IMG/VR virus record: IMGVR_UViG_3300030107_000800
Coordinates: 1 to 64,000 of that record
Reading direction: 5' to 3' (one strand)
Source: a virus
DNA length: 64,000 nt
Below, in pieces: positions 10,801 to 50,384 of this stretch (position 1 is its first letter; every line of letters starts with the position of its first letter). The notes beneath the pieces were generated by a model. The model did not search any database and was not told where the DNA came from. It was given only the letters and a program-made list of their open reading frames with translations. The translations under genes were made by a program, and so were the position numbers.

Positions 10801-13357
10801 CAACCCCAGTATATGTCTGATCAGCTTGTCCAGCAATTGTACTAGATGCTGTTGCTGTTACAGATTGGATTCCACCACCAGGATCTCGTACTTTATCTCC
10901 AACTTGGAATGTTGCAGCAGCAATATTGTTTAATACAGGAGTAACTTGTTCTACCTGTGTGTTAGTTACTACCTTAGTTTCTGGTTGTACTAGATCAGAT
11001 GCATTGACAGTAAGAATATCATTCTTAGAATAACCATTACCACCATCTGCAACAGTTGCTTCAGTTACAACACCAAGTTCAGTAATAGTAAACTCAAAAT
11101 TTTGTCCATTACCATAAGAAGGAACAAAGTTTGCAACAATAGGACCAGCAGCATCAGGTGCAACAGATATTTCTACAGTAGTAGCATCAATAATACCAGT
11201 AACAGTAGTACCAGCAGCAAGAGAACCAGTACCACTTACTTTATTAACTTCCATTCCGTCTCCAATGAGACTAGAATTAGGAACAGTTAAGTAAGTTGTA
11301 TTCTGGTTAGTAATACTAATATCAGCATCACCTGGAGTTGGTGCTCCAACTGATAATGTTATTTGAGTAGCATTATCAACAGATGCAACAGTAGTACCAG
11401 CAGCTAACTGACCACTATTGTTAATGTTGGCAATAATATCAACAGTGTCACCAACTAAAATACCTGTTGTATCACTAAGTGTGATTTGTGGGTTAGAAGC
11501 AGCAACAGTCTGTACAGCAATAGTTAAATCTTCATTTGGAGTAGCACCACCAAGTAAATCACCAGTAATTAAAAGTTGGTCTGAAGGAAGATATCCTGTA
11601 CCAGCATTGTTAACAGTAATAGAATCATATGATGCGTTACCACCAGCATATATGACATTAACATCACAATTAAATCCAGTACCAGCACCACCAGTAGGAG
11701 TTATATTAGTAAATGTTGCGTTCGCACTACCAGCAGCAATACCAGTTAAGTTGTAAGTTTCAATTGCACCAGTAGAAACAAAAGTAGTACCTGGCCCAGT
11801 GAATTCTAATGTACCTCGTGCTTGAGTAGCAACATTAGTAGTACCACTTGGTAGAGTTAATGTATCATTAACAGCATATCCTGAACCATATGCAGAATAG
11901 TCATCAATAGCAAGAATAGCACCGAATTGACCACCAAGAGTATATTGGAATCCAGAACCTTCTACACCAGCACCTACATCTCCAGATGCCATTAAATCTG
12001 TTGCAGCAACTCCTAGTACATCACCAGAAGTATAAAGTCCATCACCAGAGTTAACAACAGAAACTGATGTGATAAGTCCACCAATATTTGTTATCTCAAC
12101 AGATAATCCATTACCAGTTGCATGATCAGTTAATGTAACTTGACCACCCATTCCTGCATGTTGGCCACAGTTTAAGTATAGAGGATTATTTGCAGGGTTA
12201 GCAGGAACTACAAATGTTATTTGTTTTGTTGTAGAACCTGTATAATTTGCTAACCAATCTGCCTCTGAAACATCTGTTCCATCAAGTGTGTATGTAACAC
12301 CATCAGAACTACCTATAATAGAAGCAGTATCATCTACAACAGTACCAAAGAATATTGGATGCGTATCCATACCAGCATCACTGGCATTGAATATATACGT
12401 TTTTCCTTTGAATAATGCGAAGTCTCCAGCTTGCTTTCCATCAAAGTAATATCTACCACTAGCAGCCTTAACTACAAATGTCTGTGTACCAGCAAGAGGA
12501 AGAGTTCCAGTAAGTACGTCACCTACTTGATAACCAGCACCTGCTGATACAACTTCACTACCTCCAGCAGCACCAAATTCTTGTACAACACTACCCTGAA
12601 CAGAAATATTAGCAAGGAAATTACTACCATTTCCTCCTGTTAAGGGAATACTCTTAAATATTCCATCTGGATACCCAGTACCACCAGTTGTAGTTGTAGT
12701 CCATGTCTCAACTGTGATGTCTGCTTGTAATCCACTACCAGTACCACCAGTAAGAACTACGTTAGTATAAGAACCACTTTGATAATTGCTACCACCATTA
12801 GTTAAAGCACCGCCAATCTCATCAATAGTAAAATCAATAGTAGCACCAGTACCACTACCACTTGTAGATACAGGAATATTTTGATATGAACCTGGAGTAT
12901 AAGCAGTACCATTATTGGTAATAGTTCCAATAAATCCAGCAACTGTCATTGCAAGAGAAGCACCGTCACCAGTACCACCCAGTGTTGCTACCTCTGGATA
13001 TGAACCAGCATCATAATTTGAACCAGCAGTTTGAATTGAAACAAGTAATGAATCGAGACTATTCTTTTCAACAACGAAATCCCTATAATACTTCGTTGCT
13101 GCTTCTGATAAATCTGATAATTTCTTACTATTACTAACAAATCCAAATACACCATTGGATTGTTTGTACATTCCCAAATCTGGATCGTTTGTAAAAGCCA
13201 AACTGGGATTGGAGATTGTACCATCTCCTAATTTTATATTACCTGCCTGTAGATCACTTCCTCCAGAAGTAACATTGAACAGTTGGTTGGCGATGTCGTT
13301 AACCTTTACCCTCTGCATTTCAAGGGTATCGGTTCTCGCTATATTAATTGCTGGCAT
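7844..13357 (-). CDS. Tail fibre / structural protein (1837 aa) with G-x-G-Y repeats, two cupredoxin-like modules and G.IR(F/Y)N...YEG fibre motifs
   Basis: Repeated GSGYxxxD/GGxGxGA units, GCIRFNTTSNQYEGY and GSIRYNTGTLQYEGF motifs, and HP...LYLNCGQHAGMGG. Confidence 0.82.
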   Translation of the reverse strand: MPAINIARTDTLEMQRVKVNDIANQLFNVTSGGSDLQAGNIKLGDGTISNPSLAFTNDPDLGMYKQSNGVFGFVSNSKKLSDLSEAATKYYRDFVVEKNSLDSLLVSIQTAGSNYDAGSYPEVATLGGTGDGASLAMTVAGFIGTITNNGTAYTPGSYQNIPVSTSGSGTGATIDFTIDEIGGALTNGGSNYQSGSYTNVVLTGGTGSGLQADITVETWTTTTTGGTGYPDGIFKSIPLTGGNGSNFLANISVQGSVVQEFGAAGGSEVVSAGAGYQVGDVLTGTLPLAGTQTFVVKAASGRYYFDGKQAGDFALFKGKTYIFNASDAGMDTHPIFFGTVVDDTASIIGSSDGVTYTLDGTDVSEADWLANYTGSTTKQITFVVPANPANNPLYLNCGQHAGMGGQVTLTDHATGNGLSVEITNIGGLITSVSVVNSGDGLYTSGDVLGVAATDLMASGDVGAGVEGSGFQYTLGGQFGAILAIDDYSAYGSGYAVNDTLTLPSGTTNVATQARGTLEFTGPGTTFVSTGAIETYNLTGIAAGSANATFTNITPTGGAGTGFNCDVNVIYAGGNASYDSITVNNAGTGYLPSDQLLITGDLLGGATPNEDLTIAVQTVAASNPQITLSDTTGILVGDTVDIIANINNSGQLAAGTTVASVDNATQITLSVGAPTPGDADISITNQNTTYLTVPNSSLIGDGMEVNKVSGTGSLAAGTTVTGIIDATTVEISVAPDAAGPIVANFVPSYGNGQNFEFTITELGVVTEATVADGGNGYSKNDILTVNASDLVQPETKVVTNTQVEQVTPVLNNIAAATFQVGDKVRDPGGGIQSVTATASSTIAGQADQTYTGVASTSGGNGTGATFDVTRDNTGAVISLSVNQSGLGIFYTDTDTITIAGNLVGGSAPADNITANVDQVTTAGNAVDIQKIKTNGGNISYIICDYFGFSAGGFIVNENAPTTAYEVQTSVDDYRFLIDTVFNPSLTFYAGNSYSFDLNSATLGGHVFSLSSFPDGRWDRVEGITATLTSTATQITVGSTTGLKVGFIVEKDLADQGLGAFAADTRIVTVDSSTQFTVDKLPTVGGAIEFNAYGAEYTDGVTRVTAAGSESLTIKVTETTPTLYYYCATDSVDHTNEGGEDGEEATITIDLNNPKTFGSGFQLLVNDVVVEEIIKGEVLTGAFTVKDVVSTDATISNGTVTNLDTTVAKAATSIETPLLTAPLTAGAVTGKKLTIQTDTNKDIEVLTQNFKVGLDVAGTFTPKLTIAADTGNLEVAVGGYIKSEDIRAGDNLKITGPNTTIASLGGNDLILNPDIGRIVEVTALSGFVIPAGDTASRPGPAITKDGCIRFNTTSNQYEGYHSSTTSWSSLGGVRDLDGNTYMLAEETVGANDNTIWFFNDNVNTLKVSPNFLEFVNMKKIRSVNVLAPAYTEWNANAPVTAGQYLKWLNNLYEVTTSGTTATTGNEPIHTSGALANGTAVLTFWGLGVAPLEFDDIQELRVGPNKTCPLVIGGDLRLFGAEISTDISDLNIRPNSGKKVKIDAATSLVVPSGNTAQRGVAERGSIRYNTGTLQYEGFDGLNWGSLGGVKDVDQDTYIVPELTAGGDEDTLYFYNAGNNSLRLTQSAFEFYTVDTIVSATSDEFEITASLFTFDNAATTLDNTSTTKTFLHSSKQYFDLGVSSGVYTDPILRFDDQGDVYLNTGFGTGNYNGVKVFDSDLKEFELSDVRILSDVITLVKGSSNSGNSIIYPTATEKGAKVTVVAENLSNGAREMYEFGVIDDTTNVIYNEYGNLRTGAQLIVPTWEMTTNSEVRLNIDLGANVLATHTIKITVVSNITKK

Positions 13358-49651: not shown

Positions 49652-49882
49652 TTAAATTCCTCCTTTAATTGTTAATGAACCTCCATGATTCCATGCGTTA
49701 TATAAACATGATTGATGGATAGAAAGAAGATTTTCAAGATTAACACCTTCTAAATCTGTCCACTCTGAAACATAATCAGAACAGTCAAAATCTCCTGTTC
49801 CATCTATATGTTGTGGACATGATCTAAATTCATTATCATTATCTACCCAAAAGATTCGTCCAAAAGATTCACTGTGGAACAT
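49652..49882 (-). CDS. Small acidic protein (76 aa, MFHSESFGRIFWVD...SCPQ..DGTGDF)
   Basis: GAGG SD, directly downstream of the structured RNA. Confidence 0.75.
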   Translation of the reverse strand: MFHSESFGRIFWVDNDNEFRSCPQHIDGTGDFDCSDYVSEWTDLEGVNLENLLSIHQSCLYNAWNHGGSLTIKGGI

Positions 49883-49904
49883 TAGTTGACCTCAAATAAA
49901 AGAA

Positions 49905-50043
49905 ATGTTGAGAGAGTGGGGCATCGACATAGGTTTCACCTATATGCCCAAATTTACCTACTGGGAATCGCTTACACCTGAATACAAGGTCAGGTACTAA
50001 CTCAGTCAATGTTCGGGCAGTAGAACCACATATCCCTCAACAT
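49905..50043 (-). ncRNA. Candidate 139-nt multi-branched structured RNA (leader or sRNA)
   Basis: Terminal stem AUGUUGAGGG/CUCUCAACAU. Internal stems CUACUG/CAGUAG, ACCUGA/UCAGGU and GGGCAU/AUGCCC enclosing AUAGGU-GAA-ACCUAU. Starts at the predicted TSS and has a U-rich tail. Confidence 0.7.
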
Positions 50044-50047
50044 TTAT

Positions 50048-50105
50048 ATAATACATCATTTTGAACCCAATGCTCGTGGCCTTGTGACACTTATTATTCT
50101 GTCCC
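50048..50105 (-). promoter_or_regulatory. Early promoter, class B (-10 TATTAT, palindrome 31 nt from -10)
   Basis: ataata 50048-53, gtgacacttattattctgtccc 50084-105. 18 bp identical to 43687-704. Confidence 0.78.
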
Positions 50106-50384
50106 TAATCTTTCCTCTTTGGTTCTCTTCTTGATAAACTTTAGATTCTTCCAATCCTCCTCGTAACAAAGTAGCAAGGTATGTATCATCTTATGGTGAT
50201 CGTTTTTTGCATACCTACATTTAGGTTTGGGTTTAACACCAGTTTCAATAGTAATATAACGAGGATGTGGTCTCCCTTTAAGATCATGTGAAATTCCTTC
50301 ACACTTAAAATAGACCCATCCCTCATCATAACCATATTCACCCTGATCCCAGACTACATAGTCGTCAACTTCAGGTTCATACAT
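50094..50384 (-). CDS. Conserved cyanophage protein (probable start 50384; YEPEVDDYVVW...EGWVYFK...YITIETGVKPK)
   Basis: ORF track, recognisable motif. Confidence 0.75.
   Translation of the reverse strand: MYEPEVDDYVVWDQGEYGYDEGWVYFKCEGISHDLKGRPHPRYITIETGVKPKPKCRYAKNDHHKMIHTLLLCYEEDWKNLKFIKKRTKEERLGTE

Follow-up and report, generated by a model that had tools for sequence, protein, structure and literature searches.

The phage-encoded RNAs GOLLD and ROOL are large and ornate, measure 500-800 nt and are both Rfam families. Small ribozymes are also common in phages, and the put antiterminator RNA of phage HK022 consists of two simple hairpins. T4-like cyanophages carry two orphan structured RNAs, manA (RF01745) and wcaG (RF01761), both supported by covariation (Weinberg et al., 2010, PMC2864571). 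In T4-type phages, PeSLs combine sigma70-like promoters with stem-loops and lie at the borders of shuffling (Arbiol et al., 2010, PMC2839356). We analyzed a window of 64,000 nucleotides, positions 1 to 64,000 of the IMG/VR virus record IMGVR_UViG_3300030107_000800, and within it a folded element of 139 nt on the minus strand (50043..49905), hereafter the window copy. Judging from sequence comparison, it belongs to a new family, a structured RNA of marine T4-like cyanophages that has no Rfam entry.

Like manA and wcaG, the family is nearly restricted to marine metagenomes and T4-like cyanophages, where it occupies gene-poor regions ahead of genes of various kinds. It differs from them in having no Rfam match, in its fold, a three-way junction whose P2 carries a bulge and an exchangeable arm, and in showing no link to sugar or photosynthesis genes. 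With GOLLD and ROOL it shares its phage origin, many conserved junctions and loop-E-like motifs and a variable periphery, but its members span 115-335 nt around a 120-nt core rather than more than 400 nt, they match no Rfam model, and no tRNA lies near them in 60 loci. By genomic setting the closest relatives are the PeSLs, as here too an early sigma70-like promoter is followed by a structured element in a hyperplastic early region; PeSLs, however, are plain terminator hairpins present many times per genome, while the new RNA has six helices and was matched a single time in each of six genomes or records. Like put, it is a promoter-proximal folded RNA that would act whatever genes come next, and contact with a conserved host machine would explain its sequence conservation, but there is no homology between the two and many copies of the new RNA are not promoter-proximal. 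The resemblance to 5S rRNA (RF00001) is one of shape only. Both are about 120 nt long and form a three-way junction in which the first helix joins the ends and the last arm meets the closing helix without a spacer; an internal loop of the GAA/AGUA type is present in one arm, and the strings CCCGAAC and GUGAAAC recall loop C. In the new RNA, however, these strings lie in different arms, the 19-nt bulge has no counterpart in 5S rRNA, and the Rfam 5S model gave no match at E≤10.

Members of the family were found in about 150 marine T4-like cyanophage contigs and in the Prochlorococcus phages P-SSM2 and P-SSM5. A blastn search against phage records recovered the same intergenic stretch from P-SSM2, P-SSM5 and four single-cell-derived marine virus contigs at 80-93% identity; in P-SSM2/P-SSM5 the RNA lies unannotated between PSSM2_070 and _071. 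For the core, identity to P-SSM2 and the single-cell virus contigs is 85-93%. For the neighboring 8-kb stretch of the window, cultured cyanophages matched at most 10% of the length, with 69-77% identity. An exact 20-mer of the element was present in at least 119 IMG/VR contigs, and a second scan, using another part of the RNA and independent of the 20-mer, yielded 34 additional contigs, 24 of them with a copy recognized by our model of the family (R1). One model match each was obtained in the 78.5-kb record of the window, in P-SSM2, in P-SSM5, in a complete 202-kb genome and in two partial IMG/VR genomes. One contig, L018, contains two core copies approximately 900 nt apart (1216-1339:- and 2125-2260:-), the second of which has a long P2a insert and scores 69.7 bits only. 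Searching 185,579 species genomes with a two-part pattern returned a single match, in a 1.9-kb contig of a Poseidoniales archaeon MAG (L165, CAZRCY010000231.1), which is probably mis-binned cyanophage DNA. Since the only match in a cellular genome is most simply explained in this way, we consider the RNA viral and not borrowed from the host.

The initial annotation of this locus could assign the element neither to the tRNAs nor to a named RNA family, and our searches agree with it. ARAGORN called no tRNA or tmRNA in the window or in 60 related loci. At the gathering score, Rfam 15 (including its wcaG, manA, PhotoRC-II and glutamine riboswitch models, which that annotation had singled out) gave no match over the whole window, nor in 20 related loci (97 kb). 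With the threshold relaxed to E≤10, the region 49800-50200 gave three chance-level matches (E 2.5-4.9; snoRNA and 6A models), none of them on the fold of the element. As no Rfam match was obtained, manA, wcaG, PhotoRC-II, the glutamine riboswitches, 5S rRNA and the known ribozymes are excluded as families. No description of the RNA family was found in the literature, where the catalog of 10,006 viral csRNAs (PMC10690425) lay outside the comparison.

The fold was assessed in an alignment of 54 distinct homologs aligned independently with MAFFT (alignment A2). Its six helices contain 31 base pairs, with 96.6% of the cells paired and 174 compensatory cells, and 15 of the pairs show changes on both sides. 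None of 500 column shuffles attained these pairing and double-change values, and sliding the partners by 1-3 columns lowered pairing to 34-50%. Compensatory changes keep P1, P1b, P2, P3 and P3b, RNAalifold agrees with this structure, and in canonical copies the unconstrained minimum free energy (MFE) fold is the consensus fold. The initial annotation had proposed a discrete structured phage RNA and had made the proposal depend on covariation; the homologs bear it out, including stems P1, P2 and P3 with its GGUGAAACC hairpin. Across the family, 43 cells are G-U and 4 are A-C, and because of this 43:4 excess we assign the folded strand to the minus strand of the window, to which the G-U wobbles of the single copy had already pointed. 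Taken at the level of aligned sequences, these patterns indicate that the family is a real, strongly conserved structured phage RNA. A mutual-information search for tertiary pairs or pseudoknots in the core gave the known helices only, because the candidate regions are invariant. A coding reading of the element was rejected: its 46- and 31-aa ORFs are unsupported, the inserts show no 3-periodicity, and the substitutions in the stems are compensatory. An antisense "protein cluster" over the RNA was likewise discarded as an artifact of nucleotide conservation.

The family core of approximately 120 nt is a three-way junction, in which the closing stem P1/P1b joins both ends. P1 comprises 8-11 bp and is followed by a UAU bulge and the 3-bp P1b, which P3 adjoins without a spacer. 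P2 has 6 bp; its 5′ strand runs directly into the variable arm P2a, and on the 3′ strand a bulge of 19 nt parts P2a from P2. This near-invariant bulge, CAGGUGUAAGCGAUUCC, has the form U-N-CAGGUG-Y-AAGCGAUUCC and stays unpaired in canonical copies. Its variation, also in the independently retrieved set, is limited to two or three positions, namely the pair of letters that precede CAGG and the U/C of GUGYAAG. The junction GUAAAUUU leads into P3/P3b, which is capped by the invariant GGUGAAACC. Altogether, approximately 60 nt of the core are invariant and unpaired or in junctions. The length of the members, 115-335 nt, includes a P2a arm that measured 8-231 nt in 119 copies and lacks 3-periodicity. 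Three forms of this arm were distinguished: a short hairpin CCCC-GAUUAAGUUU-GGGG (38 unique copies), CCC-GAA...AGUA-GGG (49 unique copies), and CCCC-AAA...AGUGGU-GGGG (23 unique copies). The GAA/AGUA combination of the second form looks like an internal loop of the sarcin-ricin or loop-E type, and since variants with CUCC/GGAG occur, the CCCC/GGGG base of P2a is paired. Long P2a inserts reuse RNA modules that in other phages stand free beside the core.

In the window, all features described by the initial annotation were found in place on the minus strand, and the copy has the P1/P1b, P2 and P3/P3b helices, the CAGGUGYAAGCGAUUCC bulge, the GUAAAUUU junction and the GGUGAAACC loop of the family. 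Model R1 matched it over its full length (49905..50043, model positions 1-136; 127.7 bits, E 2.6e-33), and neither the window nor its 78.5-kb source record contained another match. P1 pairs AUGUUGAGGGA with UCUCUCAACAU (50033-50043 with 49905-49915); four of its eight modeled pairs are changed on both sides, one pair varies between U-A, G-C and A-U, and mutual information lengthens the stem by 1-2 pairs. Next come the bulged UAU (50030-50032) and P1b, GUG/CAC (50027-50029 with 49916-49918), which is paired in 100% of cells and becomes ACG/CGU and AAC/GUU in relatives. P2, CUACUG/CAGUAG (50018-50023 with 49958-49963), is also paired in 100% of cells and shows double changes in four of its six pairs, its other versions being CCAUAG/CUAUGG, CCUAUG/CAUAGG and GCUAUG/CAUAGC. 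On its 3′ side lies the 19-nt bulge UUCAGGUGUAAGCGAUUCC (49964..49982), near-invariant in the family, and then, beyond P2, the junction J2/3, GUAAAUUU (49950..49957), which is nearly invariant in alignments A2 and A4 and contains the palindrome AAAUUU. P3 and its inner hairpin P3b (49919..49949) carry the invariant GGUGAAACC. The P3 strands GGGCAU and AUGCCC pair 49949-49944 with 49924-49919, and the P3b hairpin AUAGGU-GAA-ACCUAU spans 49943-49929. Double changes affect two of five pairs in P3, where GGGCA/UGCCC is replaced by GGACU/AGUCC and GGUCU/AGACC, and three of six in P3b. Folded by itself, the window copy has an MFE of -44.4 kcal/mol (z = -2.74; 3 of 200 shuffles equal or better). Its MFE structure lacks P2, the fold given in the initial annotation lies 1.7 kcal/mol above it, and the ensemble probability of P2 is 0.077. 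As the fold is only moderately better than that of shuffles and P2 is absent from the MFE structure, the window sequence taken alone is not proof of structure.

The P2a arm of the window copy (49983..50017) is atypical. The CCC-GAA of its 5′ strand (50017-50012) is kept, while the 3′ strand AGUA-GGGG is absent: among 147 copies (111 unique), this one alone lacks the GGG(G) strand before the bulge and has CUUGUA instead. After CCC-GAA it carries GAGUUAGUACCUGA, which pairs with UCAGGU of the invariant bulge. The two resulting inner hairpins, AUUGAC-UGA-GUUAGU (50010-49996) and ACCUGA with UCAGGU (49995-49976), occur in no other copy, and one of the two covers a conserved element that is otherwise single-stranded. 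The initial annotation had read P2 as a stem enclosing two functional hairpins; this part of its proposal did not hold, as the position is that of the hypervariable arm and UCAGGU is part of the invariant bulge. GAGUUAGUACCUGA is similar to the 5′ half of a distinct module, GACUUAGUACCUG...CAGGUGAAGC, that lies beside the core in P-SSM2-type phages. The model scored the window copy lower than that of P-SSM2 (139.5 bits). Since the 3′ strand of P2a is lost and the gained segment pairs with the invariant bulge, the window copy may be weakened or self-masked, and it may be decaying or non-functional. An obligatory pairing of the bulge with the UUAGUACCUG half of "module B" was considered and rejected, as the helix of the module itself covaries (CCUG/CAGG, CCUA/UAGG, CCUU/AAGG) with no change in the CAGG of the bulge, and as module B is absent from the window.

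The window copy is flanked by minus-strand genes, a 115-aa ORF on its 5′ side (50441-50094, phrog_522) and a 76-aa gene on its 3′ side (49882-49652), which starts 22 nt after the RNA and matches phrog_13427 (E 8.9e-28). A U-rich spacer follows the RNA and leads to the GAGG Shine-Dalgarno (SD) sequence (49893-49890), 7 nt ahead of the ATG at 49882, and no terminator was called on the minus strand between the RNA and this gene; the two are probably co-transcribed in this genome. The GC content of the element, 44.6%, exceeds that of the 2-kb flanks (35.4%) and of the whole window (36.3%). These observations on GC content and on the SD sequence behind a U-rich tail repeat those made initially. The initial annotation further had the RNA begin at an early promoter, and we hold this to be likely. 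A -10-like box, TATTAT with TG ahead of it (50048..50053, minus strand), precedes UUGAG by 7 nt as in related copies and predicts a start at approximately 50041-50043, but there is no good -35 element and a consensus promoter scan called no promoter at the window copy. We treat TATTAT (50053-50048) as the putative -10 of an early-type promoter. A palindrome of the type GACAG-N10-CUGUCAC lies approximately 30 nt upstream of the box (50084-50103, minus strand), and similar ones are found some 20-30 nt upstream of the -10 in many related copies (e.g., L040, L061, L059); by its sequence it looks like an operator of early promoters. Elsewhere in the window, 9-mers resembling TAGTACCTG occur 38 times against 17.4 expected (0 of 100 shuffles), mostly on the plus strand (e.g., at 11206, 11392, 11785, 56271, 57177 and 57432) and often spaced by multiples of three; they may encode a repeated peptide motif in structural genes and have no relation to the RNA.

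The surroundings of the RNA vary among phages. In about 55-60% of the copies, including that of the window, a TAnnnT box stands exactly 7 nt before UUGAG, often after the terminator of the preceding gene and a palindrome of the GACAG-N10-CUGUC type. The remaining approximately 40% have other RNA modules upstream, so that the core is a link in a chain. Of 97 unique downstream contexts, 38 have an ORF at most 35 nt away, from several unrelated families, while in 31 the core is followed by either of two other conserved RNA modules, one of them an H-type pseudoknot with visible covariation; the rest include more RNA modules, and in some a strong terminator belonging to the RNA or a fresh promoter precedes the next gene. 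A U-rich stretch follows P1 in only 14 of the 97. No constant protein family was found within 3.5 kb of the RNA. The commonest neighbors, a Dam-like methylase, DUF7717, a UvsW-like helicase and phrog_1987, are each present in 25-40% of contexts, and we rejected a constant protein neighbor as partner because even the best families reach only about 40%.

Several of the neighboring modules are conserved RNAs themselves. A second uncatalogued module lies directly 3′ of the core in L015 (1240-1335:-), L064, L061, L098 and about 30 other loci. It forms an H-type pseudoknot, CUGCUGCAACCC..GGUAGUUUC..GGGUUGGAGG..GAAACUACC, in which both stems covary (e.g., CUCUAAUC/GAUUAGGG), and has no Rfam match. 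A third module, GUGGUAUGACUUAGUACCUG...CAGGUGAAGCACCUCUUGAGCAUACCAC, is found in P-SSM2 (L001:1590-1680:+) and about 12 other loci, and its inner helix covaries as CCUG/CAGG, CCUA/UAGG and CCUU/AAGG; its 3′ half resembles the invariant bulge of the core, which suggests common descent of parts. Modules of approximately 55-70 nt that are nested in P2a in some phages (L005, L004, L116) are free-standing in others (L075, L056, L102), for example GGCAAGGAUCUAUGG...CCUGUAAGUCC and GGGUAUGGUGAGAGUCCAUAC, and many modules end in GUAAGUCC or GUAAGACC. A further string, GACUUAGAAGCAGACACAUGAC / AAGAAGCAGAGACAUGAC, recurs in P2a inserts (L023, L065, L080, L091) and in 3′ flanks (L073, L104, L123). It may echo UUAGAAGCAGCCA of the L11-binding region of 23S rRNA, and we note this as a lead.

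Marine RNA libraries gave hints of expression. Assembled contigs from four studies contain the core, and in contigs of three metatranscriptomes the summed word depth over 49892-50055 was 20-60 times that of the flanks, a figure in which the core pools many genotypes. Because of this pooling, and because some contigs continue into promoter DNA, the excess could reflect pooling or DNA carry-over, and the contig depth is a weak hint of abundant RNA. One RNA-library contig (49400-49935) joins the 76-aa gene to the 3′ part of the RNA. The breaks of RNA-library contigs at 49907 and 49982 are branch points of the assembly graph where conserved and variable sequence meet, rather than transcript ends, and no RNA-library contig spanned the window-specific junction 49982/49983 with 31 letters on either side.

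Regarding function, we give about an even chance to an RNA that is made early, folds autonomously, binds a conserved partner and is a stable product rather than a gene-specific sensor. Such an RNA would be transcribed early from a host-type promoter, with its 5′ end at P1, and would persist either free or after being cut from the head of an early transcript. Its approximately 60 invariant unpaired or junction nucleotides would form a fixed tertiary surface for one conserved partner, be it a protein of host or phage or another RNA, while P2a would face away from this surface and act as a docking site for swapped-in RNA modules. The pattern of contexts fits a free trans-acting product and a generic cis leader alike; we favor the stable RNA, with the leader close behind. 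In the window, a gene lies 22 nt downstream without a terminator (cf. 39% of contexts), which fits a leader equally well. Further points against a stable trans-acting RNA are that roughly 40% of the copies are not promoter-proximal and that the window copy lacks a stem strand kept by all others. The main rival, at a lower probability than we give the stable product, is that the RNA is a cis-acting leader of an early transcription unit, indifferent to the genes behind it, which might shield the 5′ end against host RNase E/J, take part in the processing of a multi-module leader, or modify RNA polymerase in the manner of put. In about 55-60% of the copies P1 is at the predicted transcript start, 7 nt after the conserved -10 box. 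The RNA is co-oriented with the genes behind it, 38 of 97 contexts have an ORF no more than 35 nt away, no terminator was called in the window, and the RNA-library contig links the 3′ part of the RNA with downstream genes; the indifference to the identity of these genes also suits a generic leader. However, each genome or record checked has a single copy, simple protection would need no 60 or so invariant unpaired nucleotides, in some copies a terminator-like hairpin or a new promoter stands between the RNA and the following gene, and the fold is unlike the two plain hairpins of put.

The functions listed initially, a riboswitch-like leader, a ribozyme or a protein decoy among them, form too wide a set to be judged right or wrong as a whole. 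The initial annotation had also considered a riboswitch-like leader, in which the junction would bind a metabolite and control the 76-aa gene or its operon. A compact three-way junction with approximately 60 invariant nucleotides, junction and bulge included, and 15 covarying pairs is like many aptamers, and the RNA lies in a 5′ UTR in the window, where UUGAGG of the SD region repeats the 5′ strand of P1 and could compete for CUCUCAA; these phages also have orphan riboswitch candidates, manA and wcaG (PMC2864571). Yet a gene-specific riboswitch is unlikely because the downstream genes vary and some copies are followed by their own terminator or a new promoter. The downstream ORFs are unrelated, most of them without an assigned function, more RNA modules come after many copies, and no expression platform is conserved, with a U-rich tail in 14 of 97 contexts. 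The mimicry of P1 belongs to the ribosome site of the 76-aa gene, which follows another module in L097, and is not conserved; overall we hold this reading quite improbable. Low odds also go to a self-cleaving or processing ribozyme that would separate module arrays or trim the early transcript. Its invariant core nucleotides, compact multi-helix fold and place inside module chains would suit processing, but no Rfam ribozyme matched even at E≤10, module borders show no conserved cleavage-site context, one copy per genome is unlike most self-cleaving ribozymes, and many copies have nothing upstream of P1 to remove. Least probable of all is that the element acts as DNA, as a PeSL-like mobile unit of promoter and palindrome for gene shuffling whose RNA has no function. 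The element does lie in a mosaic early region, and its flanks and inserts are swapped among phages, but PeSLs are repeated while the genomes and records checked have a single copy, and the fold goes far beyond a terminator hairpin. In addition, the compensatory changes in five helices and the G-U:A-C ratio of 43:4 indicate that selection acts on the folded, single-stranded form of one of the two strands.

Going beyond the favored stable RNA, we raise with considerable doubt the possibility that the RNA is the core of a new modular class of viral RNAs. It would be the first stable product of infection, with a decoy or docking surface for a conserved host machine, built from the invariant bulge, junction and loop, and with P2a as a socket for interchangeable modules. 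Candidates for this machine would be RNA polymerase, a defense sensor, or a protein of the ribosome or of RNA decay. By analogy with other ornate phage RNAs, the invariant AAAUUU junction might join copies into multimers.

The present analysis adds the core anatomy across the family, the division of P2a into three classes, the finding that cellular genomes lack the RNA, and the unique variant of the window. For structural biology, the family offers a compact fold defined by covariation with a natural insertion socket, and P-SSM2 and P-SSM5 are cultured phages. T4-like cyanophages kill a large share of the Prochlorococcus and Synechococcus of the ocean, and to our knowledge their take-over of the cell does not rely on the MotA/AsiA switch found in T4. 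The RNA has been kept across phages whose other genes have diverged beyond recognition at the DNA level. Because it is preserved nearly letter for letter, is apparently early and is absent from the cellular genomes scanned, one probably mis-binned contig aside, it is a strong candidate for a factor of take-over or counter-defense in these phages.
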